Shown piece by piece: positions 3,202-19,172 of a stretch of 32,000 nt of DNA. The notes below the pieces were generated by a model. The model worked only from the letters and a program-made list of their open reading frames with translations, did not search any database and was not told the DNA's origin. Origin of the DNA: a virus; the IMG/VR virus record IMGVR_UViG_3300045988_156141, positions 11,499 to 43,498 of that record. One strand, given 5' to 3'. The position numbers and the translations under genes are program-made. Every line of letters begins with the position of its first letter. Position 1 is the stretch's first letter.

Positions 3202-3202
3202 A

Positions 3203-3987: not shown

Positions 3988-5577
3988 ATGATTCATTTAT
4001 TCTTTTCTAGAAAAAAAACAACATATGCACAAATGAAAGAACGTAATGGAGATGTGATTTTAAAACATTGTGTTAGTGCAAAAGCAGTGTTTGAAAGAAA
4101 TTCTATTTGGTACGTAGAAATAGAATTTCCAAAAAGTGATTTGATGGGTATGGAAATCAGTGATGAATCCGTGTTTAAAGTGGATATAAATTTTGAAGAA
4201 CCACAGTTATATAGAATTGTGTATCCAAAATACAACAAACAAAGCGATACATATACATGCTATGCAACACATGTGTTCTTTGATTCTCAAAAAGAAGTGT
4301 TTGTGTTTGATGATCGTACTATGAGTGGTGTGTGGAAAGATGCGATAAATACCGCAAATGATATTATTACAAATTCACGGCCAAATTATCCTTATAAAAT
4401 TTATGGACATGGGGAATATGCAAATTATGCAAATGTTAATGCAGAGAATGAAAAAATCGTTTATTTCCGAAATGTTCAGAATAGTGGGTATTGTTTGGAT
4501 GTTCCAAATGCAAGTGAAGATGCATCTATACAATTACAGATGTATCAAAGAAACAGAACGTCTGCACAGACTTTCATGTTGAAAAAAGTAGGGTCAGACA
4601 AATATGGAGATATATATGGAATTTTATCTTTATGTTCGTGTAGATGGCTTAAATTGGATTCAGGAAAGGTTGTGCTAGGAAGTCTTTCCGAAAGCCCATC
4701 AGATAATTCTGAGAAATGGTGGTTCATTAATAGTGGATCTAATTATGAAATTGCACCGTATATGAACATATATTATGGCATCTATCCTAGTTCAACGAGT
4801 ATTGGCAACGGAAACAAAGTTATTGTTGCTGATAGAGGTGCTGCCGAAGTTGGAAATGCGTGTAAATGGATGATTGAAGATATGGATTCTACACAAACTG
4901 CATATTGGGTTCGATATAATCTGATTCAATGTTTGTTTGGGACAGAAGAAAATTCTATGATGAATAGATGGCCTGAATGTGAAAGGGATAGATTTGTTGC
5001 GATGTTCAACAATTATGATTGCTACTTTGGAAATCCAGATTATTATACTTCCAATTTGAAACCAAATAACTACTTTATAAGTAATAAAGAAGTTTCTGAA
5101 TACACAAAAAAGAAGTCGATGGAAAATGTTGTAACAGGAATAATTCCAAAAGCATACAACGGTCGAATTCTACCAAACAACGAAATTGTTAAGGCTAGCA
5201 ATTGGAATACAGATGAGATCCATAGAATTGATGTGAAAGAATATTCCGATATCAAATTGATTGCGGATGATTCACAAGCAAAGAAAACAACGTTGGGTGT
5301 ATTTACAAATGAAGCAAACTTAAGAAATTATCTTAGAATACAGGCAAAAAAATCTCTGGAGAAAGAACTGCAAGAACCGAAAACGGAAACGTCTATTAAA
5401 TTTGAAGAATTATTTACGTACAATGTGCCGAATGCACAGACGTTAAAAATAAATGATTCAATTTTTGTAGAGACTGATTTTGGAAAACGAGAAAGGTTTT
5501 ATTTAAATAAATTAACCTATAACTTGATTACGGAACGTCCTGAAGATTTAGATCTTGTATTAGAAAGTGAGGTATAA
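3988..5577 (+). CDS. tail-associated (Tal-like) minor structural protein with inserted ricin-type beta-trefoil lectin domain
   Basis: Third gene of the TMP-Dit-Tal order. Residues ~155-298 show three repeats with ricin-B-like signatures (NSGYCLDV...AQTFML, ...SEKWWFI, ...ACKWMIE). Confidence 0.65.
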   Translation: MIHLFFSRKKTTYAQMKERNGDVILKHCVSAKAVFERNSIWYVEIEFPKSDLMGMEISDESVFKVDINFEEPQLYRIVYPKYNKQSDTYTCYATHVFFDSQKEVFVFDDRTMSGVWKDAINTANDIITNSRPNYPYKIYGHGEYANYANVNAENEKIVYFRNVQNSGYCLDVPNASEDASIQLQMYQRNRTSAQTFMLKKVGSDKYGDIYGILSLCSCRWLKLDSGKVVLGSLSESPSDNSEKWWFINSGSNYEIAPYMNIYYGIYPSSTSIGNGNKVIVADRGAAEVGNACKWMIEDMDSTQTAYWVRYNLIQCLFGTEENSMMNRWPECERDRFVAMFNNYDCYFGNPDYYTSNLKPNNYFISNKEVSEYTKKKSMENVVTGIIPKAYNGRILPNNEIVKASNWNTDEIHRIDVKEYSDIKLIADDSQAKKTTLGVFTNEANLRNYLRIQAKKSLEKELQEPKTETSIKFEELFTYNVPNAQTLKINDSIFVETDFGKRERFYLNKLTYNLITERPEDLDLVLESEV

Positions 5578-6178: not shown

Positions 6179-7225
6179 ATGACTGTTTTAGCAACATTAC
6201 CATATAATCAGTATTTAATACTTACGTTTGAATCTTACAATGAGCGATATGAAGGTTCATATCCAAATTTAAAATTTAAAGCGGATGTAAGGTTTAGATA
6301 TACCGGAAACTTCAAAATCCAAGCAACCAATGTTGTTACGCTTGGAGGACTTTCTAAAACTATTTCAAGGTGGGATTTAAATTATATCCAGGATTCAGGA
6401 TGGTATTATCTAGGACAAATTAATGAACCTATGTATTGCAATAGGCAACGGTCTTTTGAATGGGGTGCGAGTTGTCAAGGATGGCCTAATTTATCAGGAA
6501 TAGCAAGATTGACTACACCTAAGATTGATTTGCCAACGTATGAAGCAGAAATATCAGATATTAATAGTACCTCAATTTCTATTTATGGAAGGCTAAAAAC
6601 AAATCCTTATAATTTGTATACTTTGCGTATTTATTCAATGGCAACGCAAAAATTTATTTTGGATAGATTAAACGGAACACATATTGTAAGCGAATTGAAA
6701 GGTTCGACAAGTTATGAATTTCATATCGAACCGTTTATGGCCGACTGTTCGGGATCGTATTTACTTCAAACAGTATTAAAAGCAACAACGTTAGAAGATT
6801 ATAAAAAGATATCTGTAACGAGTGTAGATGTAACTATATCTCATATTGATGATAAGTATGATAAAGCAGTGTGTGTTGCACATACAACGGATGATGCACA
6901 TGTTACAAAGAGTCATTGGGATTATGATGGTATGGGAAGTAATTTAACTTCAGATAATCTTACAAAGGAATTTAAAGTGTCGAATGGGAATGAGTATAGA
7001 ATGCTTGTTTATGTAACAGATACTTTAGGAAGAACAAGCAATTATTATTACTTTTATATTATTGCATCTGCATCTTATAGAGAAGTATGGGTCTTTGATG
7101 GAAATAATTGGAAAAAAGGAAAATCACTTGTTTTGAGTAGTGATGGAAAAACATTTGAGAAATGTAGGCTTTATTGTGATACAGGATTGAAATGGAAAGG
7201 TGCAAAAAGATATGGAGAGGATTAA
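6179..7225 (+). CDS. tail/baseplate structural protein, function unknown
   Basis: 348-aa ORF tightly packed in the tail module with GAGGAG upstream. The beta-rich sequence has an FN3-like stretch. No specific family recognised. Confidence 0.6.
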   Translation: MTVLATLPYNQYLILTFESYNERYEGSYPNLKFKADVRFRYTGNFKIQATNVVTLGGLSKTISRWDLNYIQDSGWYYLGQINEPMYCNRQRSFEWGASCQGWPNLSGIARLTTPKIDLPTYEAEISDINSTSISIYGRLKTNPYNLYTLRIYSMATQKFILDRLNGTHIVSELKGSTSYEFHIEPFMADCSGSYLLQTVLKATTLEDYKKISVTSVDVTISHIDDKYDKAVCVAHTTDDAHVTKSHWDYDGMGSNLTSDNLTKEFKVSNGNEYRMLVYVTDTLGRTSNYYYFYIIASASYREVWVFDGNNWKKGKSLVLSSDGKTFEKCRLYCDTGLKWKGAKRYGED

Positions 7226-7227
7226 AA

Positions 7228-7521
7228 ATGGAAATTAAAAGAGATCATATTTTCATAAATCAAGGAGATACCATCTATACAGATATTTTAATTAAGTATA
7301 AGAATGGGCAAGTATTTGTTCCTGGTAAGGATGATTCTTTAGAGTTCATTATTTATAAAGATGGCAAAGAACTTATTAAAATTCCTATTGATGAATCTTT
7401 GAAGGTGATTTGCCAAACGGATGAACTTTCTGTTGGTGTTTATAATTGGATGGTTCGTATTGATGTTAATGGGATTAAAGAAACACCGTTAAAAGGAATT
7501 CTTCAAGTGAAAGGAGACTAG
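7228..7521 (+). CDS. small tail-module protein, unknown function
   Basis: ATG at 7228 follows GGAGAGG. It sits between two structural genes and is translationally coupled to the next ORF. Confidence 0.6.
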   Translation: MEIKRDHIFINQGDTIYTDILIKYKNGQVFVPGKDDSLEFIIYKDGKELIKIPIDESLKVICQTDELSVGVYNWMVRIDVNGIKETPLKGILQVKGD

Positions 7522-7523
7522 AA

Positions 7524-10022
7524 ATGGACGGATTGAAAGCAAGACTAAGCTTTGATGCGGTTGCTTATGATTATGATGATGAATATCTTACAATTGATAC
7601 AGATACACATACTATTAATATTAATAATGTATCTAGATTGTTCGGAGTGCAATATGATGGAAATTCTAAACTGATTAAATTTAGAATCAGAAACAAGTTA
7701 TCTGATATTCAAAAAATGCAAGATTCAATTGTTTATATAAATTGGATTGATTCTAAGGGAGTTAAGGGTCAGTCAATTGCGATTAACAAAACAATTAATA
7801 ATGATACTTGTGAATTTGCATGGAAAGTACCATTTGATGCCTTGAAAAATTCAGGAGTATTACATTTTGCGATGAGCGCAGTTATGACTAAAAATAGTTC
7901 AAGTGTAATTGATCAAAGATGGTCTACAAAAATTGCATCTGTAATTACACCTGATGGAATTTATATTAAATCTTATACTCCTAGTAGCGAAGAAGAAGAT
8001 AGAATTGCACAAATCTATAACGAATTATCAAAGATGATAAATAAGCAAAATAATAATTTGCAATCACAAGTTAGTTCCCTAAAGGAAGATATAACAAAAT
8101 TTATTAATAAGCCTACTTTGGAAGATAATAATAAATTCCCAAGAGCACTTAACGGAGATGTTGAGTGGGTTGAGCAAGGATTGCCAACAGATGAGCAAAC
8201 ATCTAGTGCAATTAATAAATGGCTAGATGCACACCCAGAAGCTACTACAACGGTTCAAGATGGTAGTATTGGATATGAAAAATTTAGTGAAAGTTTTAAA
8301 AAGCAGATAATTAGTGTTATTCCTGAAAAAACTGGTGATATTACAGAATTAATTAACAATACACTTAAAAGTAATATGCATTTACGTATATACAATTCGG
8401 ATGTACAAATTTCAAAAGGCCTTTCATTTAAAGGCTTGGAAAATGTAACTTTGGAATTTGTTGACTCTAAAGTGACATATTTATATGATCACAATGATCT
8501 AATAAACGATCAATTTGCTATTTTGATGGAAAATTGTAAAAATGTATTAATTACTGGTTTAGAACTAACAACAGATTTTTCTAAAGAAAACGATGAATCT
8601 TTAGATTTATCACCGCTTGCTGGTAAAAAAATTTACGCAATAAATTTTACTTTTGTTGAGAATGGAATGATTGCAAATACTAAAATTTCACAATTTACAG
8701 ATGGATTAAGTATAAATTATAGTAAAGATATTTATTCTTTTAGAAATACTTTTTTCAACCTAGGCGAAGAGCCGGTGGCATTTAGAAATTGTAGTAGATG
8801 TAAAATGACAGATTGCGAAGCCTACTGGTATTGTGGTGATGGCGCACTTGTTAAACACTGGGATTCATATGAGCTTTCTGGGTTTATTTTTTCAAACAAC
8901 TATTTTCATGATGGAAAAGATTACAAAACAGGTGACGGGCGTGTAATATGTGGTGGTGGTTTCACAACAAATGTAGAAGGAAATGCAACTGTTAAAAGAG
9001 ACCCAGAGTATATAATTGTTAAAAATAATATATTTGTTGATGTTGAGTATGGTGTATTATTAGCTGGCGGTAGTCATATTATTGTAGATGGTAATTTAGT
9101 TAAACCAAAGCAAAAATCAGATGGAAACTATTATACATATGCAGCACTTGGACTTGACTATTCAAGCTATAATTTACCAGACACACAACTTTATACAGAT
9201 ATTAAATTTATAAACAATACAGTCGAACAAGCTAGTAGAGGAATTTATATTTCAAAACATAGTGATGAGAGCGTTGTAATAACGCATGAAGATATTTTGA
9301 TTTCTGGCAATATTATTAAAAATTGTAACAATGAAGCAATTGAAACTAATGACTCGCTGGTTTATGGCAACATTTTTAAAAACGTTAAACTGATTATTCT
9401 TTACAATACCACATTTATAGCCAATAAAGTTGTTGGTTCATCATCATTACCTCAGTACAGTAGATTTCAGGCTAATGATAGTAATCTTATCTGTAATATT
9501 ATGGATATGAATGGATTATATTTAGATGTAAGAAACACAAAAGATGTTTCAATTTCATATAATACTATTAATACAATGAATTCTATTCGGGTTGACTGGA
9601 CTTCTGGATATGTATATTTTACAAATAACATTTATTCATCTACTCCAGCACTAAGATTATTAAACAATTCACAAGATTACATTGTTATAAATGGAGAACC
9701 GTACAAAGCTAAATTAATAGGTGGTGAGTATTACTCATATACAAAACGTTATGGAATTGTTGAACTAGATTTTATTTCTTCAACTAACGTACCCCTAACA
9801 AAAAGCGGTAAAACATTAGGAACACTACCAGAAGGTTACAGACCAATTACAATATCACGTCATATTTTATACACGAACCCATCAAGTGGTGCTATTGGTG
9901 TAATTGTCAGAATAGAAATTCACCCAAGCGGTGAAGTTATAGCAATTGCTCAAGAAAATGTTAGTGGTGCTCCAATTCGAGGAAGTCTAACATTTTTAGC
10001 TGAACAAAATTCTCTAAATTAG
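7524..10022 (+). CDS. receptor-binding tail spike/fibre with BppU-family N-domain and right-handed parallel beta-helix (pectate-lyase-like) domain
   Basis: 832 aa. The N-terminus (LFGVQYDGNSKLIKFRIRN...GVLHFAMSA) is typical of Firmicute phage baseplate/fibre anchors, followed by a coiled-coil. Residues ~330-640 carry repeated N-x-x-(I/V)-x-N / GN-(I/L) rungs (e.g. ISGNIIKNCNNEAIE, VYGNIFKN). Confidence 0.7.
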   Translation: MDGLKARLSFDAVAYDYDDEYLTIDTDTHTININNVSRLFGVQYDGNSKLIKFRIRNKLSDIQKMQDSIVYINWIDSKGVKGQSIAINKTINNDTCEFAWKVPFDALKNSGVLHFAMSAVMTKNSSSVIDQRWSTKIASVITPDGIYIKSYTPSSEEEDRIAQIYNELSKMINKQNNNLQSQVSSLKEDITKFINKPTLEDNNKFPRALNGDVEWVEQGLPTDEQTSSAINKWLDAHPEATTTVQDGSIGYEKFSESFKKQIISVIPEKTGDITELINNTLKSNMHLRIYNSDVQISKGLSFKGLENVTLEFVDSKVTYLYDHNDLINDQFAILMENCKNVLITGLELTTDFSKENDESLDLSPLAGKKIYAINFTFVENGMIANTKISQFTDGLSINYSKDIYSFRNTFFNLGEEPVAFRNCSRCKMTDCEAYWYCGDGALVKHWDSYELSGFIFSNNYFHDGKDYKTGDGRVICGGGFTTNVEGNATVKRDPEYIIVKNNIFVDVEYGVLLAGGSHIIVDGNLVKPKQKSDGNYYTYAALGLDYSSYNLPDTQLYTDIKFINNTVEQASRGIYISKHSDESVVITHEDILISGNIIKNCNNEAIETNDSLVYGNIFKNVKLIILYNTTFIANKVVGSSSLPQYSRFQANDSNLICNIMDMNGLYLDVRNTKDVSISYNTINTMNSIRVDWTSGYVYFTNNIYSSTPALRLLNNSQDYIVINGEPYKAKLIGGEYYSYTKRYGIVELDFISSTNVPLTKSGKTLGTLPEGYRPITISRHILYTNPSSGAIGVIVRIEIHPSGEVIAIAQENVSGAPIRGSLTFLAEQNSLN

Positions 10023-10069
10023 TAAATTGTTGCATTTAAATAGAATGAAAACTTGAAAGGAAAACGAAT

Positions 10070-10363
10070 ATGAGTGGTGAATATCTTAGCGTTATTATTT
10101 CTGCATGCATGCTTGTAATTGCATTTATTACGTATAATCGTGGTACACGCAAGATGGATGGAGAACAAATATCCAATATGGCATTTTTGAAGAATGAATT
10201 GGAACATATCAAATCGGATTTAAATGATATAAAGGATTCGATTTCGGAAATTAAAAAAGGAAGCAATTCAATGGAAGTGGAGGTTTCAGAAATAAAACAA
10301 CAAATAATTACTTTGTTTAATCGTGTAAAAGCGTTGGAGGATCGTAATAAAAATGGATATTAA
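10070..10363 (+). CDS. membrane-anchored coiled-coil protein (N-terminal TM)
   Basis: 97 aa. TM segment LSVIISACMLVIAFITY is followed by heptad-like coil. RBS is AAAGGA. Confidence 0.6.
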   Translation: MSGEYLSVIISACMLVIAFITYNRGTRKMDGEQISNMAFLKNELEHIKSDLNDIKDSISEIKKGSNSMEVEVSEIKQQIITLFNRVKALEDRNKNGY

Positions 10364-10586
10364 AGATGCAAACAAGAAACTTCAAAATGTAGAAGAAAAA
10401 GTAGATAACATTTATGGTTTTTGCTCAAAATTAATTGAAAGAAACTATAAAACAAGTAGAACGATTATTACGGTTTTAATCCTAGTGATTATTGTTCTTT
10501 ATTCTACTATTGTTTGTCGTGGTTATTGGAAAGATGATCATGTGAATAATTGTTCTTGCGAAGCTAATTCAAACCAACGAATTTAA
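10353..10586 (+). CDS. coiled-coil protein with C-terminal TM (XhlA-like architecture)
   Basis: 77 aa with an N-terminal coil then TM IITVLILVIIVLYSTIV. The architecture matches XhlA-type lysis accessory proteins. The family assignment is tentative. Confidence 0.5.
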   Translation: MDIKDANKKLQNVEEKVDNIYGFCSKLIERNYKTSRTIITVLILVIIVLYSTIVCRGYWKDDHVNNCSCEANSNQRI

Positions 10587-10594
10587 TTAAGGCG

Positions 10595-10828
10595 GTGGTT
10601 TATATTAACAAAGCTAACAGATTAAAAGAGATACGTCCTAATGATGCATTAATACTTATCAAATCTGTTGGATTAAGAAAGAAATATGAACAGATTTTGA
10701 TTATGAGATATGTATATGATATGTCATGTACCGAAATTGCAGATGCATTACATATGGAAGTACAAACCATAAGGAACAGAGTATGCAAAGCAAGAAAAAT
10801 GTTCGATAAATATGTGAGCAATCTATAA
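10595..10828 (+). CDS. sigma-70 region-4-only HTH protein
   Basis: 77 aa with a GTG start after AAGGCGG. The stretch LRKKYEQILIMRYVYDMSCTEIADALHMEVQTIRNRVCKARKMF matches the sigma70_r4_2/ECF pattern (L..R.R.V..LRY..G.S..EIA..L..S..TV..R...AR..L). Confidence 0.6.
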   Translation: MVYINKANRLKEIRPNDALILIKSVGLRKKYEQILIMRYVYDMSCTEIADALHMEVQTIRNRVCKARKMFDKYVSNL

Positions 10829-10848
10829 TGGTTGCTCATTTTATTTTG
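10815..10848 (+). terminator. intrinsic terminator
   Basis: Stem TGAGCAA (10815-10821) / TTGCTCA (10832-10838) is followed by TTTTATTTT. Confidence 0.6.
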
Positions 10849-10858
10849 GGTATTTTAT

Positions 10859-10903
10859 GAGTATTATTCGAGTATTAAATTATTTGTTGCGTAACCATAT
10901 AAT
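10859..10903 (+). promoter_or_regulatory. direct repeats GAGTATTA x2 (11-bp period) upstream of a TATAAT box
   Basis: GAGTATTA occurs at 10859-10866 and 10870-10877, and TATAAT at 10898-10903. No good TTGACA-like -35 is present. The second repeat sits at about the -35 position. Confidence 0.4.
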
Positions 10904-10929
10904 TAAAGCGTAATAAAGAGGTGGTTGAA

Positions 10930-11370
10930 ATGTATAACAATTATAATCCAGCACAAGCACGAATAGACAGTTTGATGCAACAAAGACAAATGATAGATCA
11001 ACAAATTCAGCAAGTACAACAGTATGCAAATATTCCACCTATCAATATTAATAATCAGATTACACCACAACAACAAGGCAATTTTGATTTTAATGGAAAA
11101 TGGGTGAACGACGAGCAGGAAGCTAGAAACTTTGCGAATGCAAATTTACCAACGATTTTATTTGATAACAATAAATCTATTTTTTATATGAAATCTTTAG
11201 ATGGAACATTTAAAAAGTTCAAATTTGAAGAAATCACAGAAGATAATTCTAACAGTATTGAAAATCGTGTAAATGGAATCGAAAAGAAATTAGATGATTT
11301 GATATGTGCATTAAGCAAACCACCAAAACAAGCTAATGAACAGCCAAAGAAAGGAGCACAAACAAAATGA
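10930..11370 (+). CDS. Gln-rich protein, unknown function
   Basis: ATG at 10930 follows AGAGGTGG. The N-terminal 50 aa are Q/N-rich (QQRQMIDQQIQQVQQ...PQQQ), followed by a folded-looking domain and a K/Q-rich tail. Confidence 0.7.
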   Translation: MYNNYNPAQARIDSLMQQRQMIDQQIQQVQQYANIPPININNQITPQQQGNFDFNGKWVNDEQEARNFANANLPTILFDNNKSIFYMKSLDGTFKKFKFEEITEDNSNSIENRVNGIEKKLDDLICALSKPPKQANEQPKKGAQTK

Positions 11371-11609
11371 ATCCTTTAAAAAGTATTATGGGTAATATGA
11401 ATCCAATGAATATGATGAATATGGGAAATCCCCAACAAATGTTAATGAATATGTTGTCACAGAAAAATCCACAAGCATTTCAACAATTTCAAATGCTTAT
11501 GAACAGTGGCCAAAATCCACAAATGATTTTAAATCAGATGATGGGTAATTTAAATCCACAACAAAAGCAACAACTGCAACAAATGGCAAAACAGTTTGGA
11601 ATCAGGTAA
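11367..11609 (+). CDS. Met/Asn/Gln-rich low-complexity protein with NPQ repeats
   Basis: 80 aa with an ATGA overlap to the upstream gene. It has four NPQ motifs (GNPQQML, KNPQAFQ, QNPQMIL, LNPQQKQ) and almost no charged or aromatic core residues. Confidence 0.6.
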   Translation: MNPLKSIMGNMNPMNMMNMGNPQQMLMNMLSQKNPQAFQQFQMLMNSGQNPQMILNQMMGNLNPQQKQQLQQMAKQFGIR

Positions 11610-11650
11610 CAACGGCTAAACCGTTATTATAGAAAGAAAGGAGAACATAT

Positions 11651-12274
11651 ATGATGGAAAACGGAATGGGAATTCAACCAACTTACAACTTAGCTGAAAG
11701 AGATGACGGCTTTGGAAACGGTGGAGGTTGGTGGATTTGGATCTTGCTAATCTTCGTATTATTTGGATATGGAGGATATGGCAACGGAAACCTAACAAAT
11801 GATTCTTTATTAAATGAAGAATTCATTAAACGAGACATTTTTAACACAAACACAAATGTATCTCAAACAGGTTGTCAAACTCAACGTGATGTATTAGAAA
11901 GTCGCTATACTAATCAGTTAGGACTTCAAAACTTGCAAGCTCAGCAACAAGAATGCTGCTGCAACACTCAACGAGCAATTGACAATGTAAATGCTCAAAG
12001 TTTCAAAAATACTTGTGACATTACAACAGCAATTCATTCAGAAGGTGAAGCAACACGTGCGTTGATTAATGCAAACACTATGCAAGAATTACGTGATCGT
12101 TTAGCTGATCGTGACCGTGATTTATTGACGGCTAATTTCCAATTAAGTCAACAGGCACAATCTGCAAATATCATTAATACTTTGCAACCAACACCAAAAC
12201 CAGCTTACATTACATGTTCACCATATTACGCTTATAACAACGGATGTGGATGTAATGGCTACAACAACTTATAA
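11651..12274 (+). CDS. Cys-rich membrane/coiled-coil protein with Gly-flanked TM segment
   Basis: AAGGAG RBS. The TM segment is GNGGGWWIWILLIFVLFGYGGYGNG. It also has a CCC triplet (QQQECCCNTQR), a coiled-coil and a C-terminal CSPYYAYNNGCGCNGYNNL. Confidence 0.7.
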   Translation: MMENGMGIQPTYNLAERDDGFGNGGGWWIWILLIFVLFGYGGYGNGNLTNDSLLNEEFIKRDIFNTNTNVSQTGCQTQRDVLESRYTNQLGLQNLQAQQQECCCNTQRAIDNVNAQSFKNTCDITTAIHSEGEATRALINANTMQELRDRLADRDRDLLTANFQLSQQAQSANIINTLQPTPKPAYITCSPYYAYNNGCGCNGYNNL

Positions 12275-12315
12275 TCTAGCACATATGTGATTAGGCAATT
12301 GCCTTTGGATTTAAC

Positions 12316-12344
12316 GGGATAGTCGAAAGGCTATCCCTATTTTA
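12316..12344 (+). terminator. intrinsic terminator
   Basis: Stem GGGATAG (12316-12322) / CTATCCC (12331-12337) is followed by TATTTTA. Confidence 0.6.
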
Positions 12345-12361
12345 ATAGGAGGATAAAAGAA

Positions 12362-12781
12362 ATGATTAATAGTATTGCTACGGCTGTTCAGACAGTCGAT
12401 AATTCAAATAATGTATTGTTTCCTACAGATCGTGTAAGAAGTAAATCCTGCCAGTGTCCATGTAAAGGTTGGCTTGCTCATGATCTAGGAAGTGGATTGT
12501 TTACACTAACAAAGTCAGGTATCTATGAAGTAACTTATACTGCGGATATTACGAGTGCAGCGGCAGGACAAGCTTCTTTAGTGCTTGAACTAAACGGAGA
12601 AGCAATTGGTGGAACACAATCTATTTATACTGTTGCAACTGCAAGTGCGTATGGAAATGTAAGTGGAGATACTCTAATTCAAGTTCCATGTGGTGCATCT
12701 TATACAATTGCATTAGCAAATAACAGTGGTTTAGACTTAACAGTCCAAAACGCAAATATTATCATTAAAAAGATTGCGTAG
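12362..12781 (+). CDS. stand-alone BclA C-terminal-domain-like (C1q/TNF-like jelly-roll) protein
   Basis: 139 aa with AGGAGG RBS. It is co-linear by eye with the Bacillus BclA C-terminal domain. FTLTKSGIYEVTYTADIT aligns with FVISETGFYKIDVIAYTAT, LVLELNGEAIGGT with LTIQVNGVPVPGT, and the C-terminal NANIIIKKIA with SASIIIEKVA. Confidence 0.65.
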   Translation: MINSIATAVQTVDNSNNVLFPTDRVRSKSCQCPCKGWLAHDLGSGLFTLTKSGIYEVTYTADITSAAAGQASLVLELNGEAIGGTQSIYTVATASAYGNVSGDTLIQVPCGASYTIALANNSGLDLTVQNANIIIKKIA

Positions 12782-12790
12782 GTGAAAAAT

Positions 12791-13264
12791 ATGCATAAAG
12801 CAATGGAAGTTAATGAAAAGATAATGCATGAGTCAGTAAACATGTTAGAGAAATATGGATATGCAGAATCTTATTTCCATGCATTATCTCAAGCTTTAGA
12901 TAATATCAAAGACATTGAAACGATAGAAGCAATGAGAAATAAATATCAAATTGAGATAGGAAAAGATGGAGTTTCCACTGTTGCAAGATTAAAAGAAGAT
13001 AATGATGGATATAATATTCATGATCCAGAAACAGAAGATATTGTTTATAAGCTTGCAGAACATTTGAAAAAATATAAAGCGTTCAAAGAAGAATATTCGC
13101 GTACAAAAGGCGATATGGATTTGGAAAAGTCTCATCGTGAATTAGATAAGACTATGAAATGTATGCAACAAATCGTAACTATGATTCATGGATGCGTTGA
13201 TTCAGATGAAGAAAAAACAATGATTAAGACACATATACGAGACATGTTTAATATGTATCAATAA
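12791..13264 (+). CDS. helical hypothetical protein
   Basis: ATG at 12791 follows AGGTG (GTG at 12782 is also possible). It is charged and helical with no recognised family. Confidence 0.6.
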   Translation: MHKAMEVNEKIMHESVNMLEKYGYAESYFHALSQALDNIKDIETIEAMRNKYQIEIGKDGVSTVARLKEDNDGYNIHDPETEDIVYKLAEHLKKYKAFKEEYSRTKGDMDLEKSHRELDKTMKCMQQIVTMIHGCVDSDEEKTMIKTHIRDMFNMYQ

Positions 13265-13290
13265 GGCCGTTAAATACGGTCTTTTATTTT
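13264..13290 (+). terminator. intrinsic terminator
   Basis: Stem AGGCCGT / ACGGTCT (one G-U pair) has loop TAAAT and is followed by TTTTATTTT. Confidence 0.6.
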
Positions 13291-13303
13291 GTACAGTGTA
13301 CAA
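13289..13303. promoter_or_regulatory. perfect 7-1-7 palindrome TTGTACA-G-TGTACAA upstream of holin
   Basis: Seen directly in the sequence, about 40 nt upstream of the holin RBS. Confidence 0.35.
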
Positions 13304-13343
13304 ACGATTTAAATACTATCATTAGGATAGGAGGTATTTGTAA

Positions 13344-13565
13344 ATGAAAAAATATAGTAAAGAATGGTGGATTCAATATGGCTATTATGCAAGTATCAGA
13401 GCATTAAAGACAATTGCTCAAACTGCTGTTGGTGTTATTGGAGCATCTGCATTATTGGAATCCGTTGATTGGCGAGTTGTAATTTCGTCAGCGTTTTTGT
13501 CAGGCATCGTCTCGTTGCTGACTAGTATTGGCGGATTGCCTGAAATTAGTGTACCGGAGGAATAA
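13344..13565 (+). CDS. holin (phiLC3-like, two TM segments)
   Basis: 73 aa. The pattern IRALKTIAQTAVGVIGA...W..VISSAFLSGIVSLLTSIGG is typical of Firmicute phage holins. It lies immediately upstream of the endolysin. Confidence 0.75.
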   Translation: MKKYSKEWWIQYGYYASIRALKTIAQTAVGVIGASALLESVDWRVVISSAFLSGIVSLLTSIGGLPEISVPEE

Positions 13566-13567
13566 TA

Positions 13568-13681
13568 ATGAATGATGAAGAAAAAGTAGTAGATTATGAG
13601 AATCTATCAGAAGAAGCAAAAGAAGAATTAAGCAATGGCAAGGAAGAAGGTGTAGATGAAGAATGTCGTATTCCGGATTAG
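13568..13681 (+). CDS. 37-aa highly acidic micro-protein between holin and endolysin
   Basis: ATG lies 6 nt after GGAGGA. The product is MNDEEKVVDYENLSEEAKEELSNGKEEGVDEECRIPD. It overlaps the endolysin start by 19 nt. Confidence 0.5.
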   Translation: MNDEEKVVDYENLSEEAKEELSNGKEEGVDEECRIPD

Positions 13682-14739
13682 CAACATATTGTAACAGAAC
13701 ATCACAACATTATGATGGTCGTTTTGGATATAAGGTTTGTAAAATCACTCCACACTACATGGCTGCGGCATGGAGTGGTAAACAATGTGCAGATTATTTT
13801 GCACGAAATACTCGTCAAGCATCTTCCAATTATTGTATTGGAATTAATGGAGACATTGCATGCAGTGTTGATGAAGAAAATGCTGCATGGACAAGTTCAA
13901 ATTGGTTGAATGATTCTCAATCAATTACAATTGAATGTGGAAACATTAATAACGCAACTGGAGAAATGACGCAAGCCACTTGGGATAGCTTGGTGAATCT
14001 ATGTGTTGATATTTGTAAACGATATGGATTTAGATTGAACTATACAGGAAATTCTAGCGGATCATTGACTATGCACAAAATGTTTGCGGCTACATCATGC
14101 CCTGGAGCATGGTTGGAAGCACGTATGCCACAATTGGCTAATGAAGTAAATGCAAAATTAGATGGAAAGGTTGAAACACCAAAACCTACAACTCCAAGTG
14201 GAGAAAAATATTCAGTTAATTTACCTATCTGTACAAACACATTGAGTGTGAATTGCTACGGAACTTCTACAGTTAAAAAAGGTGATTGGTCAGGTGTCAT
14301 TGGTAGAGTAATTAAAGGAACAAAATATCCATATCGTGTTGATCGTAATGGAGTAGCGATTGGGTGGACTAATGATGCCGGTATTGATACAGACCCTCAT
14401 GTGCCAGTTGGTGCCACACAGTCTAGCGCAGAAGCTATCGACCAAATTTTGCATGAAGGAAGCTATGTTACATCTGTACATATGAAAATTGGTAACCAAG
14501 GCTTGAAGAAAATTGGCGATGATTTATGCTGCTACTTGTCTAAATTAGGCGGTTGGTTTCCTGTTCGTATGGTAGATAAAGTACCAAATTCAGATGGATA
14601 TAATGACAATGTACTGCATACCACAAATGCAGTAGTCTACGTATCTAGAATCAGAGTCGATGCAGTGAATGTTCAAAAGAATATTGTCAAGATTGGTGGT
14701 GTTTGGGTTGATCCAACACCGTTAACAGAAATTGAATAA
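13663..14739 (+). CDS. endolysin, N-acetylmuramoyl-L-alanine amidase (Amidase_2/PGRP fold) with C-terminal cell-wall-binding region
   Basis: Co-linear with PlyG/PlyL-type amidases. ITPHY, ASSNYCIG..GDI, ENAAW, SQSITIECGN and LTMHKMFAATSCPGAWL supply the His/His/Cys zinc-ligand positions. The C-terminal ~190 aa are beta-rich. Confidence 0.85.
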   Translation: MSYSGLATYCNRTSQHYDGRFGYKVCKITPHYMAAAWSGKQCADYFARNTRQASSNYCIGINGDIACSVDEENAAWTSSNWLNDSQSITIECGNINNATGEMTQATWDSLVNLCVDICKRYGFRLNYTGNSSGSLTMHKMFAATSCPGAWLEARMPQLANEVNAKLDGKVETPKPTTPSGEKYSVNLPICTNTLSVNCYGTSTVKKGDWSGVIGRVIKGTKYPYRVDRNGVAIGWTNDAGIDTDPHVPVGATQSSAEAIDQILHEGSYVTSVHMKIGNQGLKKIGDDLCCYLSKLGGWFPVRMVDKVPNSDGYNDNVLHTTNAVVYVSRIRVDAVNVQKNIVKIGGVWVDPTPLTEIE

Positions 14740-14762
14740 AATAAAAAAATATAAAAAATTGT

Positions 14763-14791
14763 TTGACATAATATAGTTTATACTGTATTAT
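14763..14791 (+). promoter_or_regulatory. sigma-A-type promoter TTGACA-17-TATTAT
   Basis: TTGACA at 14763-14768, a 17-nt spacer, and TATTAT at 14786-14791. Confidence 0.5.
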
Positions 14792-14797
14792 CTTTCT

Positions 14798-14960
14798 TGC
14801 GTGAAGCAGTGAGGTACATTTTGGGGTACAAAACAACAAAGTGCTATCAAAACACGTAGATAATGATGTAAATAACATCAAATATCAATAGATATGAGGT
14901 ATTAATATAATCCCCTCATCTGCTCCATTGAAATTTAAGCCTTTATTTAAAGGCTTTTTT
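14798..14960 (+). ncRNA. candidate ~160-nt small RNA (promoter-to-terminator unit without ORF)
   Basis: It lies between the 14763 promoter and the 14937 terminator and holds only 2-3 codon ORFs. There is an internal hairpin ATGAGG/CCTCAT (14894-14919) and one TTGGGGTA copy (14821-14828). Confidence 0.3.
14937..14960 (+). terminator. intrinsic terminator
   Basis: Stem AAGCCTTT / AAAGGCTT has loop ATTT and is followed by TTTT. Confidence 0.7.
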
Positions 14961-14967
14961 ATTTGTG

Positions 14968-14987
14968 TTGGGGTATATTGGGGTATA
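14968..14987 (+). repeat. perfect tandem direct repeat TTGGGGTATA x2
   Basis: Copies at 14968-14977 and 14978-14987. A third TTGGGGTA is at 14821 and an inverted copy TATACCCC at 15010-15017. Confidence 0.8.
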
Positions 14988-15023
14988 ATTTGATATTAAA
15001 ATATTGAATTATACCCCTTTTTT
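14980..15023 (+). terminator. 11-bp inverted repeat GGGGTATAATT/AATTATACCCC + T6 (terminator-like; left arm contains TATAAT)
   Basis: Arms at 14980-14990 and 15007-15017 with a 16-nt AT spacer, then TTTTTT. It lies 32 nt upstream of the integrase ATG. Confidence 0.5.
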
Positions 15024-15054
15024 GCATATTATGGACATATAAGAGGGCACAAAA

Positions 15055-16152
15055 ATGGCAGTGGAATTAGATAAGAAAACAGGAAAATATATGTTTGCTG
15101 GAAAAATATATAAAGATGGCAAATGTATAAAGAGATATCGTAAGCGTGGTTTTGATTCTAAATGGGAAGCACAAAAAGCTGAGGTTGAATTCAGAAAAGA
15201 TTTCTTTATGCTTCCATCAGATATGAATTTTGACAGACTATATAAAGCTTTTAAAGAATATAATAAAAAGTACGTAAAAGAATCAACACTAAAATCAGAT
15301 GAATATTTGTATAATGTTCTATCTAAGGAAATGAAAGATGTTGATTTTCTAGATAAAAGACAAATGCAAAACTTGATCAACAAATTTGATGAGAAATATT
15401 CAAAGGCATATGTATCAAGAATCTATTTCTTTTTAAATAAGCTATATAAATTTGGTGTTACTTCTGAATACATTCCTACCAATCCAATGACATATGTAAA
15501 ACGTGATCTTAGATTGAATGAAAGAAAAGAAGAAATGACAATATGGCAGCAATACGATTTTGATTTGTTTATTGAAGAAGTGGATGAACAAATGATGAAA
15601 TGCTTTTATTCTGTTTTATTCTATATGGGATTACGAAAAGGTGAAGCTATGGCCTTACAATGGAAGGATATTGATTTTAGAAAACAAACTATAGATATCA
15701 ACAAAACATATAAATACAAAGAGAAAGACCCAAATAAGTGGCTTACACCGCCAAAAACAAACAATAGCTATAGAACTATCACAATGCCTAATACATTGTC
15801 TAAAATGCTTCGAGAATGGTTTCTAGAATGTTCTAAATGGGATGATTTTACAAAAGATAAATTTGTGTTTGGATACTATAAACCAATATCACCTCAGACA
15901 GTACAAAGAAGATTTGATGATGCGTATAATAAGGCGAAAGAAAAAGATGATACATTGCCTAAAATAAGAATCCATGATTTTAGACATTCGCATGCATCGT
16001 TTCTAATTAATAACATGGCAGGAGCTGGATTCTCAGATTTTGACATAGCCAAACGCTTAGGAGATACAGTTGAAACATTGCACAATACATATGCACACTG
16101 GTTTGATACAAAAGATAAGAGTATTGTAGATATGATGAATAAATTGTTGTGA
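15055..16152 (+). CDS. int: tyrosine integrase
   Basis: 365 aa. It has an N-terminal arm-binding-type domain and catalytic motifs GLRKGEAMAL (Arg), RIHDFRHSHASFLI (H-x-x-R) and LGDTVETLHNTYAH (Tyr). Confidence 0.9.
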   Translation: MAVELDKKTGKYMFAGKIYKDGKCIKRYRKRGFDSKWEAQKAEVEFRKDFFMLPSDMNFDRLYKAFKEYNKKYVKESTLKSDEYLYNVLSKEMKDVDFLDKRQMQNLINKFDEKYSKAYVSRIYFFLNKLYKFGVTSEYIPTNPMTYVKRDLRLNERKEEMTIWQQYDFDLFIEEVDEQMMKCFYSVLFYMGLRKGEAMALQWKDIDFRKQTIDINKTYKYKEKDPNKWLTPPKTNNSYRTITMPNTLSKMLREWFLECSKWDDFTKDKFVFGYYKPISPQTVQRRFDDAYNKAKEKDDTLPKIRIHDFRHSHASFLINNMAGAGFSDFDIAKRLGDTVETLHNTYAHWFDTKDKSIVDMMNKLL

Positions 16153-16233
16153 AAGTGTTAGTTTCAACTAACAAAGTATTGTATTTTCTTTCCACTTAAA
16201 GTAATATTTAGATAGAATAGGAGGAGTTAATCT

Positions 16234-16449
16234 ATGAAAAAGAATGTGTTTTCGTTTGCTACTTCTAGTTTTGGATATGGAATAAGTAAAGTTATGGATA
16301 TAAATGGTAGTAATATAAAAAAAATAAAGATAGGAACGTTTGTGGATGATGCTGCAAGCCTTTCAAATGATTGGATTACTATTGGAAATGATATTAGAAA
16401 GGCTATGTCGGATTATGAAAGAAACCCAGCTCAATTCAAAGTCAAGTAA
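16234..16449 (+). CDS. hypothetical protein
   Basis: 71 aa with a strong GGAGGAG RBS 7 nt upstream. Confidence 0.55.
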   Translation: MKKNVFSFATSSFGYGISKVMDINGSNIKKIKIGTFVDDAASLSNDWITIGNDIRKAMSDYERNPAQFKVK

Positions 16450-16483
16450 TGAGTTAAATAACATCGAAAATGAGTTTGACAAA

Positions 16484-16849
16484 ATGCCAAAAGAAGAACA
16501 AATACAATTCGTTCAGATGGCTATGCAAAAATCATTCAGTGGCCCATTACCACCATCTGAGGATTTTGCAAGATATGAACAAGTAACACCTGGAGCAGGT
16601 GATCGTATATTAAAGATGGCCGAAGATCAGGCAAAACATAGACAATCACTAGAAATGAAAATGCTAAAAAGCGAAGTTCGTAGTACATTGATTGGGCAAA
16701 TAATGGCTTTTAGTATTTGTGTAATTGTTTTGGTAGCTGGTATATATTTTGTTTTAAAAGGCATGAATAACAAAGGCTTCGTGGCTATATTCACTCCACT
16801 TGCCTTTTTGATAGGATCATTTTTATACAATAAGAATAAAAACGATTGA
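16484..16849 (+). CDS. DUF2335-like membrane protein
   Basis: FSGPLPPSEDFARYEQVTPGAGDRILKMAEDQAKHRQSLE followed by two TM segments matches the DUF2335 pattern. The start is uncertain (ATG 16484 has a weak RBS, and the ORF is open from 16340). Confidence 0.6.
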   Translation: MPKEEQIQFVQMAMQKSFSGPLPPSEDFARYEQVTPGAGDRILKMAEDQAKHRQSLEMKMLKSEVRSTLIGQIMAFSICVIVLVAGIYFVLKGMNNKGFVAIFTPLAFLIGSFLYNKNKND

Positions 16850-17667: not shown

Positions 17668-18675
17668 TTAATATCCGTTTCGTGTTACACCATATTCAGC
17701 TTGTTCTTGTGTAAATCCATCAAACATCAATTGTTCAATTAATCCTTGTCTAGAAAAAGACATGACACTTAAATAATCCATCGCTTTTAATGCAGCTTCT
17801 TCATCCCAATTTGCGTTAGTATGATCTGCGCCGTATTCTGCTTCTTCTTGAGTGTACCCGTCATAAAGCAATTGGTCAATTAGTCCTTTTCTTGAAAATT
17901 CATAATAATCTAAATAATCTAAAGCTCTATTCAATGCGTTTTTCTGACCTACTGTTGGAGTTGGAGCGGATGAATTTGTGCTTGCACTTGAGTCTGTATT
18001 TGGCGTTGTTGTAGTTGTTGATGAATCTGAAGTTGAATTGGTTGTGTTACTTGTAGTTTCTTCTTTTTCATCTGTGATTGATACATTCTCAACTATATCC
18101 AAAATATCGTTGTAGTAATTATATTCTAATCCGTCATACTGAACATAAGATAAAACTCCGTATCCGTTATGCTTGTTGTTTGAAATAAAATATAAATTTA
18201 CATTTGCGTATATAGATTGATTATCAAGAATAACGTGTCCACTATTACTTATTAGTTTATAATACTGATAGTTTCCTTGTTCATTTTTAAATGATTTTTC
18301 TTCTATTTCATAATCTTTTGGAAGATACTTAAAGGCATCTGTCTCTAAAAACGAATCAGTATATTCATCTATGCTAGAATCATTTAATTCTTCATTAACC
18401 CAAGTTAATCCCATTACTGTAAAATCTGAATTGTCAGCTATGAACACAACAGGATTAACATCATCTTTATCAGTGATTTTAAAATAGTTAGGTACATGGA
18501 ATTGAACATTATCTAATTCATATTTAGTTGTTGATGATAAATTAAAACCATTTCTATCTTCAAGTTCAACTTCTTCTGTTTTGTTATCAGCTTTAACTCT
18601 TTCTTTGTAGCTTGTACATCCTGTACACATAGATAGTGCAAGCACAGAAATCCCAATAGTTTTGAATAATTTCAT
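17668..18675 (-). CDS. Ltp-type surface lipoprotein (superinfection exclusion candidate)
   Basis: Signal peptide with lipobox (ALSMCTGC) and a Ser/Thr-rich linker. The C-terminus has two Ltp repeats (ALNRALDYLDYYEFSRKGLIDQLLYDGYTQEEAEYG and ALKAMDYLSVMSFSRQGLIEQLMFDGFTQEQAEYG). Confidence 0.8.
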   Translation of the reverse strand: MKLFKTIGISVLALSMCTGCTSYKERVKADNKTEEVELEDRNGFNLSSTTKYELDNVQFHVPNYFKITDKDDVNPVVFIADNSDFTVMGLTWVNEELNDSSIDEYTDSFLETDAFKYLPKDYEIEEKSFKNEQGNYQYYKLISNSGHVILDNQSIYANVNLYFISNNKHNGYGVLSYVQYDGLEYNYYNDILDIVENVSITDEKEETTSNTTNSTSDSSTTTTTPNTDSSASTNSSAPTPTVGQKNALNRALDYLDYYEFSRKGLIDQLLYDGYTQEEAEYGADHTNANWDEEAALKAMDYLSVMSFSRQGLIEQLMFDGFTQEQAEYGVTRNGY

Positions 18676-18761: not shown

Positions 18762-19172
18762 CTATTTGTTGTTCTTTTCTTTTTCTCTTTTAGCTAATTC
18801 TCTATTTACAATTGACCACAAATAATCTGCAACTTGTTGCTTTATATCCGGCGGTGCTTCAAGGTATCCTCGCACAAGCCATTTATCTTCTGGCTTTAAT
18901 CCATAATCTTCGATTAGTTGATCTATTTTTGAATCAGGTATAGAAATGAACATATCGTCTCCAATACCTTCAGTTAACCATACATAGTCAACGTTAAATT
19001 CTCGACATATAGAATTGATGGTTTGGCTTGATGGATTGGTAGTTCCTTTTTCAATGTTATTGATTGAACCTTTTGAGATACCTATTTGTTTACCGAATTT
19101 TTCCATACTCAAATTAAAATGTTTACGTATTTTATATATTCTCGACCCTATATGTTCTTCCACGATTTTCAC
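18762..19172 (-). CDS. XRE-family (cI-like) repressor
   Basis: HTH_3 pattern LSMEKFGKQIGISKGSINNIEKGTTNPSSQTINSICREFNVDYVWL. It is divergent from the early promoter. The likely start is the GTG at 19163, 6 nt after AGAGGTG. Confidence 0.85.
   Translation of the reverse strand: MKIVEEHIGSRIYKIRKHFNLSMEKFGKQIGISKGSINNIEKGTTNPSSQTINSICREFNVDYVWLTEGIGDDMFISIPDSKIDQLIEDYGLKPEDKWLVRGYLEAPPDIKQQVADYLWSIVNRELAKREKEKNNK

Follow-up and report, generated by a model that had tools for sequence, protein, structure and literature searches.

Phages are known to encode small regulators with a helix-turn-helix (HTH) of the sigma-70 region 4 type, such as the RinA-, ArpU-, and Xpf-type activators and the Q-type antiterminators. 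Jelly-roll domains of the tumor necrosis factor (TNF)/C1q-like family are found in BclA of the Bacillus exosporium nap and in F-BclA of the F-ENA tip fibrillum, and the crystal structure of the C-terminal domain of F-BclA (9H38) is a trimeric TNF-like jelly roll (PMC12357932). In this study, we analyzed 32,000 nucleotides from a virus (IMG/VR record IMGVR_UViG_3300045988_156141, positions 11,499 to 43,498; hereafter the window), in which eight open reading frames (ORFs), g1 to g8, include one gene of each kind, namely, g3 and g7. The g3 product resembles the regulators in being small and phage-encoded and in its type of HTH, but it consists of region 4 only and heads an accessory cassette, not a packaging or late operon, and its activity is putative. 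The g7 product belongs to the same jelly-roll family as BclA; it differs in standing alone, without a collagen-like GXY stalk or an exosporium-targeting N-terminus, in being encoded in a phage cassette in a nonsporulating host, and in having its place taken by an unrelated β-rich protein in 25 loci. An earlier reading of this DNA (the original prediction) had interpreted the cluster at 10070–13290 as a self-regulated module for remodeling the spore or cell surface. We propose instead, with a probability of roughly 0.85, that g3–g8 (10595–13264) is one copy of a conserved, portable cassette that is unrelated to spores.

The g6 and g7 genes are adjacent in unrelated phages (tblastn), and at these loci they are part of a series that runs from a Q/N/Y/P-rich protein of ~150 amino acids through an NP-x-Q-repeat protein of ~75 amino acids, a Cys-rich protein, and a jelly-roll protein to a helical protein. 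Hidden Markov models (HMMs) of our own were searched on all ORFs of 70 sources, which comprise 55 loci (obtained by scanning one genome per species with a five-sequence alignment as the query), phage records, and the window. This gave 64 non-redundant loci with g6; because many of them are cut by contig ends, the counts are lower bounds. All the cassette genes are on one strand in 64/64 loci, and the gene g7 or its alternative b2 directly follows g6 in 59/64. The combination of g4, g5, g6, and either g7 or b2 is present in 41/64 loci, a g8 or DUF7841 protein closes the cassette in 40/64, and all six positions are filled in 26/64, as they are in the window. Gene by gene, g4 was found in 56 loci, g5 in 52, g7 in 39, b2 in 25, g8 in 24, and DUF7841 in 21. 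Whether the block is conserved as a unit or mobile, as the original prediction had asked, is answered by both: gene order is colinear in 62/64 loci, at differing genome positions.

Two of the positions can be filled by either of two families, g7 or b2 and g8 or DUF7841 (L011, L012, L014, L017, L021, L024, and others). The b2 product is a β-rich protein with an N-terminal Cys motif. Alignment of the profiles with hhalign revealed no detectable homology between g8 and DUF7841 or between g7 and b2; these families are therefore positional alternatives, not homologues. An apparent profile match between alignments A3 and A5 was an artifact, as the same CPD1 sequence was in both, and a g5-like N-terminal segment (gene fusion) in the crAss-like and archaeal g6 proteins was not supported (scores of 2–5 bits). 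Occasional extra genes are a small coiled-coil gene before the jelly-roll gene and a ferritin-like gene (phrog_17879) after it. In 12 cassettes, the latter separates the jelly-roll gene from the gene that comes last; it is absent from the window, and its product has conserved His/Glu residues and matches prokaryotic ferritins, including those of Thermotoga, Archaeoglobus, and Pyrococcus, over most of its length (E-values (E) of 6e-4 to 7e-3). Genes for HNH-type or I-HmuI-like endonucleases are inserted in the cassette or directly next to it in CPD1, Ceridwen, C3_41T2LP, and cr52_1, which suggests that the cassette is a frequent homing target.

A g3-type region-4 protein was found in 46/70 sources, and in 27 loci it heads the cassette directly upstream of g4, which bears out the earlier claim that the block forms a unit apart, equipped with a gene of its own for an HTH of the sigma region 4 type. 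Hairpins with a T run follow g3 in 19/27 loci and g6 in 29/59 loci, compared with 11.5% of random windows drawn from these loci (p about 1e-12), although this enrichment is inflated because the background windows are mostly coding, which tells against the reading. Since hairpins recur after g3 and g6, an arrangement in three hairpin-bounded units recurs among the cassettes. In the window, the first unit additionally holds the unrelated g1–g2; our HMMs found g1 in five loci and g2 in six, all Holdemanella-type, so both genes are placed outside the cassette. The dN/dS values against L016, a relative with 70–88% identity, were 0.06–0.15 for g3, g4, g6, and g7 (0.06 for g3 and 0.08 for g6), indicating that these are real genes under purifying selection.

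The position of the cassette in the genome varies. It follows the integrase in Dulem virus 39, lies between the minor and major capsid genes in Dulem virus 35, is located behind the lysis genes amid anti-repressor and recombination genes in CPD1, and follows a lysin in Ceridwen. When three genes on either side were compared with Pfam, the upstream neighbors were lysis enzymes or holins, tail proteins, or Phage_min_cap2, and the downstream neighbors were integrases or recombinases, Phage_scaffold, or host genes. The sites are module junctions, none of them tied to a receptor-binding protein (RBP). This bears on the alternative offered in the original prediction, that the cluster consists of chaperones or assembly factors for a tail fiber or RBP, and which its place directly behind an RBP-like gene in the window would favor. 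A megablast search of window positions 7000–16500 against the INPHARED phages gave no match. Positions 10026–13576 (g1 through the holin) share 97% identity with three further Holdemanella-type contigs; these have other sequence in place of the C-terminal two-thirds of the tail protein and of the catalytic part of the endolysin. Hence, the block fails to covary with the receptor-binding part, and the swap itself fits the 832-residue tail protein being an RBP. Elsewhere the cassette is far from tail genes, after the integrase, between minor capsid and scaffold genes, or among early genes, and these differing positions argue that it is not a set of RBP chaperones. Moreover, the C. perfringens phage phiCP39-O, whose flanks are 93–97% identical to CPD1, lacks g4-g5-g6-b2 and the small coiled-coil gene while retaining a g3-type and the ferritin-like gene as well as a remnant of the g8 3' end; it is viable without the core, which is thus dispensable. 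We consider a role tied to the RBP very unlikely.

The exchange near the tail and lysis genes could also be followed in the Holdemanella prophage L007, in which the tail protein is 92% identical to that of the window up to 8059 and unrelated over 8060–10025. The catalytic part of the endolysin is Amidase_2 in the window and CHAP in L007, and the C-terminal part (14431–14938) is 81% identical.

The secure host assignments are Holdemanella, C. perfringens, and Butyrivibrio fibrisolvens; a Bacteroides uniformis phage, C3_41T2LP (g6, b2, DUF7841); crAss-like Suoliviridae (DUF7841, g6, b2); a prophage with the complete cassette in a Phascolarctobacterium contig of 545 kb; Alistipes and Alloprevotella contigs of >120 kb; and, for g6, viruses assigned to Methanomassiliicoccales, of which the one examined has g6 alone. 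Assignments to Melainabacteria, Spirochaetes, Collinsella, Succinivibrio, and Mycoplasmatota rest on the binning of metagenome-assembled genomes (MAGs) and may be wrong. Judged by the record names, nearly all the sources are gut, rumen, or feces. In crAss-like copies, the g6 homologue and the downstream gene have in-frame stops (1 and 7), which fit stop-codon recoding. In archaeal vir215 and crAss-like cr52_1, a reverse transcriptase gene precedes the g6 homologue at a distance of a few genes; each is beside a tail-protein gene and is probably part of a diversity-generating retroelement, none of which was found in the window.

The original prediction had described g1 and g2 as membrane coiled-coil proteins, g3 as a 77-residue protein with sigma-70 region 4 only, g5 as an 80-residue Met/Asn/Gln-rich NPQ-repeat protein, and g7 as a stand-alone jelly roll like the C-terminal domain of BclA, and our results agree with these descriptions. 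The g1 product has an N-terminal hydrophobic helix at approximately residues 3–21 (hydropathy maximum, 1.96) and a C-terminal coiled-coil-like part, with weak coiled-coil-type Pfam matches and a match to phrog_1863 (E 4e-6). The g2 product has the reverse arrangement, a coiled-coil-like N-terminal part and a hydrophobic helix at residues 37–55 (hydropathy 2.82), an architecture that, without an HMM match, we take to be XhlA-like. In Pfam at E ≤ 1, XhlA was absent from both matches of g2 and from the 25 listed of the 33 matches of g1. The g3 product matches Sigma70_r4_2 (E 2.2e-10; 40.4 bits against a Pfam gathering score of 25.7) and, in NCBIfam, the region-4 parts of models for extracytoplasmic function (ECF) sigma factors; Phage_antitermQ and models named "positive control sigma-like factor" were matched weakly. 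All of its Pfam and NCBIfam matches are confined to region 4, with none to region 2, and its family alignment consists of region-4-only proteins of ~70–95 residues.

An AlphaFold2 model of g4 (mean predicted local distance difference test score (pLDDT) of 74, ~90 in the central domain) consists of a Q/N-rich N-terminal helix, a small β-α-β-β-β domain (~56–98), and a C-terminal helix. The best Protein Data Bank (PDB) neighbor in Foldseek was the collagen XVIII trimerization domain, a weak match (E 0.1–0.3, probability 0.8–0.9, template modeling score ~0.5 on the target); the matches in BFVD were confined to uncharacterized gut phage proteins on contigs labeled siphovirus, myovirus, and podovirus. 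No Pfam or PDB sequence match was found for g4, and a Pfam scan of 50 relatives gave nothing beyond single chance matches. The g5 product is helical, with NP-x-Q repeats and 17 Gln, 16 Met, and 13 Asn in 80 residues; it has no informative Pfam or PDB match, and a profile search of the PDB returned only designed or TAL repeat proteins. The g6 product has eight Cys residues, a Gly-flanked hydrophobic core WWIWILLIFVLF at residues ~27–38, a long helical region with Cys-Cys-Cys at 102–104 and a long predicted helix at 115–169, and a C-terminal CSPY...GCGC tail. The family alignment shows that the CCC motif is invariant and that the hydrophobic core with its flanking Gly residues and the terminal G-C-G-C are conserved throughout. 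The AlphaFold2 model of g6 from 56 homologues, the run that gave the helix, was unusable (pLDDT 48, predicted template modeling score 0.13). This protein belongs to phrog_16490 (E 2e-7; 1e-46 for the Bacteroides phage homologue) and has 5218 homologues at E ≤ 1e-3 in a collection clustered at 90%, or 1129 representatives at 50% identity; its sole Pfam match at E ≤ 1 was a chance hit to the ATG14 coiled coil. The g7 product matches BclA_C (PF18573) with 40.1 bits against a gathering cut-off of 38 (E 3.9e-10) and phrog_20016 (E 1e-17), and a 34-member family profile aligned nearly end to end with 9H38 (E 2e-4) and BclA structures 1WCK and 3TWI (E 5e-4). The g8 product is helical; its relatives often contain an R/G/Y/D-rich low-complexity insert, the R/G/Y insert being absent from the window g8, and a PDB profile search gave no structural relative for g8 and nothing informative for b2. 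Both phrog_16490 and phrog_20016 are annotated as "unknown function", and NCBIfam and PADLOC gave nothing for g4–g8. By reading of the sequences, none of the cassette products has a signal peptide.

A gene-by-gene reading of the window gives a temperate siphovirus-type phage or prophage (Table 1). All eight ORFs of the original prediction were found on the plus strand, and its placement of the cluster between the RBP and the lysis genes holds, with the 832-residue tail protein on one side and an r1t-type holin and an Amidase_2 endolysin on the other. Its three terminator-closed operons stand only in part. Three sites with a hairpin and T tract are present, and the 5.7-kb region contains 11 terminator-like sites against 2.1 ± 1.5 in shuffled sequences. 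Hairpins 1 and 3, at 10814 and 13263, each combine a GC-rich hairpin with a directly following U tract and are predicted intrinsic terminators. Hairpin 2, however, has a weak T tract, and its tail, TATTTTAATA, runs into the ribosome-binding site (RBS) of g7; since this RBS lies directly behind it, the hairpin is likelier to be an attenuator or an element of an RNA 3' end than a full stop, and there is no room for a promoter, so that g7–g8 require read-through. We therefore prefer to speak of three hairpin-delimited units rather than three operons. No terminator was found between the tail gene and g1.

The most likely start of g4 is ATG 10930, which is preceded by the RBS AGAGGTGG and was chosen by the gene callers in related contigs. 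The candidate promoter for g4–g6 has a perfect −10 element and a weak −35 element; it was read by eye, and a consensus scan did not list this site. An antisense ORF of 79 amino acids that fully covers g3 is probably spurious and may be the reason that some gene callers missed g3 in contigs related to the window, L007 among them. The Tal-like protein contains a ricin-type β-trefoil lectin domain (E 6e-6), a possible carbohydrate-binding module, and the 832-residue tail protein has no Pfam match. A hairpin with a 17-bp stem and a T run between the endolysin and integrase genes lies just beyond 14938, where the likeness to the integrated prophage L007 stops; it is probably a terminator beside the attachment-site region. 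In the lysogeny module, a gene for a 335-residue protein with two Lipoprotein_Ltp repeats (E 2e-27), of the type of the superinfection-exclusion lipoprotein of TP-J34, adjoins the gene for a CI-like HTH repressor, so the phage is already equipped with a conventional exclusion gene.

Table 1 Coordinates of features in the window and of side features at other loci
Feature	Sequence	Position	Strand	Details
Tape measure	Window	16-3201		
Dit-like protein	Window	3188-3985		
Tal-like protein	Window	3988-5577		Ricin lectin domain
Tail protein	Window	7524-10022		832 amino acids; after further tail genes
g1	Window	10070-10363	+	ORF, 97 amino acids
g2	Window	10353-10586	+	ORF, 77 amino acids; 11-nt overlap with g1
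g3	Window	10595-10828	+	ORF, 77 amino acids
Antisense ORF over g3	Window	10600-10839	-	
Hairpin 1 and T tract	Window	10814-10839	+	TTTATTTT; 10 pairs; overlaps g3 stop codon
Candidate promoter for g4-g6	Window	10875-10903	+	-10 TATAAT at 10898-10903; -35 TTAAAT at 10875-10880
g4	Window	10930-11370	+	146 amino acids; alternative start 10921
g5	Window	11367-11609	+	80 amino acids; start overlaps g4 stop (ATGA)
g6	Window	11651-12274	+	ORF, 207 amino acids
Hairpin 2	Window	12316-12337	+	9-bp stem, GAAA loop, weak T tract
g7	Window	12362-12781	+	ORF, 139 amino acids
g8	Window	12782-13264	+	ORF, 160 amino acids
Hairpin 3 and T tract	Window	13263-13283	+	8 pairs, tail TTATTTT; cassette end
Holin, r1t type	Window	13344-13565	+	Outside cassette
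Endolysin, Amidase_2	Window	13663-14739		
Hairpin with T run	Window	14980-15017		
Integrase	Window	15055-16152		Followed by lysogeny and early genes
Lipoprotein_Ltp-repeat protein	Window	17668-18675	-	
CI-like HTH repressor	Window	18762-19172	-	
Ferritin-like gene	L002	8322-8849		
Ferritin-like gene	L004	4604-5197		
Ferritin-like gene	L005	4382-5086		
Ferritin-like gene	L070	5112-5639		
Ferritin-like gene	Eight other loci			
HNH-type/I-HmuI-like endonuclease	L002	6005-6655		
HNH-type/I-HmuI-like endonuclease	L003	6377-7240		
HNH-type/I-HmuI-like endonuclease	L012	3793-4413		
HNH-type/I-HmuI-like endonuclease	L014	6886-7464		
Genes with in-frame stops (g6 homologue and downstream gene)	L011	4599-5576, 6032-6598		crAss-like
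Genes with in-frame stops (g6 homologue and downstream gene)	L014	6182-6748		crAss-like
Reverse transcriptase	L013	2915-3949		Archaeal vir215
Reverse transcriptase	L014	1744-2769		crAss-like cr52_1

The spore interpretation was examined through the host and the products. Proteins in NCBI that equal g6, g7, and g3 exactly or at 98% identity bear the names Holdemanella porci or H. biformis, and a 99.7-kb contig carries the same cluster in a prophage beside the chromosomal radC, mreC, and polA genes. Holdemanella is Gram-positive, and H. biformis is listed as endospore-negative (PMC6428956); it has been used as an ethanol-sensitive "former spore-former" with a sporulation signature of 19–23% (PMC8340488). 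The original prediction had itself named a nonsporulating host as evidence against a spore module. Although g7 truly has a BclA_C-type domain, it lacks the GXY repeats of a BclA-type exosporium glycoprotein, and although g6 is Cys-rich, with a segment, GGGWWIWILLIFVLFGYGG, that resembles YjcZ sporulation peptides to the eye, it is a protein of 207 residues with a large additional domain that matched neither NCBIfam/TIGRFAM nor Pfam YjcZ models nor the Pfam families CotY/CotZ/ExsY at E ≤ 1. Some carriers infect spore formers, such as C. perfringens, but the same cassette occurs in Butyrivibrio phages, the reduced block with a g6 homologue in Bacteroides and crAss-like phages, and a g6 homologue in Methanomassiliicoccales viruses. 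A role on the spore surface is hence hardly credible. A BclA_C domain together with Cys-rich or low-complexity proteins should not by itself be taken as an indicator of spore biology.

What the cassette does can be proposed tentatively. We regard it as possible, at well below even odds, that the cassette is a self-regulated accessory unit encoding a putative membrane-anchored, Cys-bearing coiled-coil complex with a TNF-like head. In this model, g3 would activate or autoregulate a promoter in the ~100-nt spacer between g3 and g4, and a promoter of its own under g3 control would allow expression of the cassette wherever it is inserted; two hairpins may grade the expression, with g4–g6 above g7–g8. 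As the products have no signal peptides, they would assemble in the cytoplasm of the infected cell, forming a fiber-like complex in which g6 may be the stalk, fixed in the cytoplasmic membrane through its hydrophobic segment, g7 the trimeric head, and g4, g5, and g8 assembly partners or adaptors. The cytoplasmic membrane is favored as the anchor site solely on the ground that all the hosts have one. The complex would confer a nonessential fitness benefit. Counted in favor of this proposal are the fiber-like parts, that is, the match of g7 to a trimeric family, the weak likeness of g4 to a trimerization domain, and the predicted helix of g6. Records of crAss-like phages label the g6 homologues "viral fiber/spike", a fold-derived label for which trimeric viral attachment fibers are the likely source.

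Several points weigh against it. The g6 model leaves the coiled-coil stalk unconfirmed, and the hydrophobic core of g6 is only ~12–14 residues long, with a hydropathy of 1.54 and no positive flank read; such a core may not span a membrane, which makes anchoring a weak step. The similarity of g4 to a trimerization domain is weak (E ≥ 0.1), and both the contact between g6 and g7 and the binding of g3 to the g3–g4 spacer are assumptions. Roughly half of the loci have their g3-like gene at a distance of 1–3 kb. Apart from g6, no homology to g8 or g7 is detectable in the crAss-type block (DUF7841, b2), and the host given for a MAG contig can be wrong.

Placing the same proteins on the virion is nearly as likely as a complex bound to the cell. 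The cassette would then encode a dispensable set of fibers, decorations, or carried proteins, with the g6 stalk docked by its hydrophobic N-terminus and g7 as the distal knob, aiding adsorption or persistence in the gut. The one-strand arrangement of the cassette, with 79% of upstream neighbors in the same orientation, and its frequent location in or beside head or tail modules are consistent with this, as are a cassette neighbor in the Bacteroides phage that matches phrog_473, "virion structural protein", and weak Foldseek matches of the g4 model to tail fibers and collagen-like proteins. Stop-codon recoding in crAss-like phages marks late genes, and the crAss-like g6 homologue and its neighbors carry recoded in-frame stops like the adjacent virion genes. 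TNF-like heads of the BclA_C kind are typical of fiber tips (PMC12357932). On the other hand, no obvious docking site is common to the siphovirus-type prophages, the crAss-like phages, and the archaeal virus, structural genes do not usually come with a private HTH regulator, and the cassettes of CPD1 and Dulem virus 39 lie amid early or lysogeny genes. Low-complexity and hydrophobic segments also speak against a place on the particle, and our literature search found no proteomic data.

Some of these features would equally suit a moron for lysogenic conversion or superinfection exclusion, expressed from the prophage and altering the host membrane or surface: the cassette is dispensable, has its own regulator, candidate promoter, and predicted terminators, lies near the prophage end between the tail genes and the lysis/attachment region in the window and L007, and has integrases as its commonest downstream neighbors. 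We nevertheless consider this unlikely, since the cassette is also present in crAss-like and C. perfringens phages with no integrase in the regions examined, a strictly syntenic six-gene set of structural type is unlike known exclusion genes, and the Ltp-type lipoprotein already occupies the usual place; the products also lack signal peptides and a PADLOC match. A slightly less probable proposal still is a host-independent, self-assembling matrix or condensate, cross-linked by Cys, that concentrates or protects phage components or progeny. It would account for the composition of the products (Y/Q/N-rich g4, M/Q-rich g5, G/aromatic-rich g6, R/G/Y-rich relatives of g8), the invariant Cys motifs, the optional ferritin-like gene in 12 loci, and the occurrence in unrelated hosts that are nearly all gut or rumen anaerobes, but the case is purely compositional, is backed by neither experiment nor homologue, and is at odds with the window g8, which lacks the R/G/Y insert. 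Improbable, though of wider consequence, is a host-independent, Cys-cross-linkable self-assembling structure, either a membrane-anchored fiber coat or a matrix, that shields or clusters progeny virions or the infected cell and so serves survival and transmission in the animal gut; if true, viruses of bacteria of several phyla would possess a functional counterpart of a spore coat or an occlusion body. A defense system was set aside as no component in PADLOC-DB matched beyond chance coiled-coil hits (E ≥ 7e-4). A ferrosome-like or metal-storage module, to which only the optional ferritin-like gene pointed, and an encapsulin cargo were also considered and set aside.

The original prediction knew of no described system of this composition, and we found none in the libraries or literature searched. 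Protein-family libraries, the PADLOC defense library, solved structures, and the literature assign no function to the cassette; Pfam covers it only with BclA_C, sigma region-4 models, and DUF7841 for the alternative last gene, and the GenBank labels are "hypothetical" or fold-derived, such as "viral fiber/spike". We rate the cassette as a kind not yet described, although its function could prove to belong to a known class. Conserved "hypothetical" genes of phages mostly form single families, whereas here several genes make up a unit in which the order is fixed, a regulator gene is included, and hairpins recur. The full unit occurs in viruses of Gram-positive bacteria and one Negativicutes prophage, and the reduced block in Bacteroides and crAss-like phages. 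A cassette that works irrespective of the host envelope and whose loss the phage survives hints at a general aspect of the life of gut phages. Cultured carriers are available (Butyrivibrio with Ceridwen, C. perfringens with CPD1, and Bacteroides uniformis with C3_41T2LP), and phiCP39-O is a natural knock-out relative.

Among known systems at the junction of tail and lysis genes, the PBSX-type XhlA and holin lysis accessories resemble g1 and g2, which are small single-pass coiled-coil membrane proteins at the tail–holin junction with weak PHROG matches labeled "hemolysin" and "hol-like". They differ in that neither g1 nor g2 has a significant XhlA match, and we regard the two as separate, lineage-specific small membrane proteins of this junction. 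The g6 product shares with Rz-type i-spanins an N-terminal hydrophobic anchor and a long helix with conserved Cys, often near lysis genes. By contrast, g6 is found in an archaeal virus and in phages whose hosts are Gram-positive, and no o-spanin accompanies it; in crAss-like cr52_1, a LysB-like gene stands separately beside the block, and the g6 core is dispensable. An Rz-type spanin was rejected in view of the Gram-positive host, the lack of a lipoprotein partner in the cluster, and the presence of the family in an archaeal virus. The remaining comparison, architectural only, is with reovirus sigma-1 and the adenovirus fiber, the hydrophobic N-terminal anchor, helical stalk, and jelly-roll head of which would here be split over g6 and g7.

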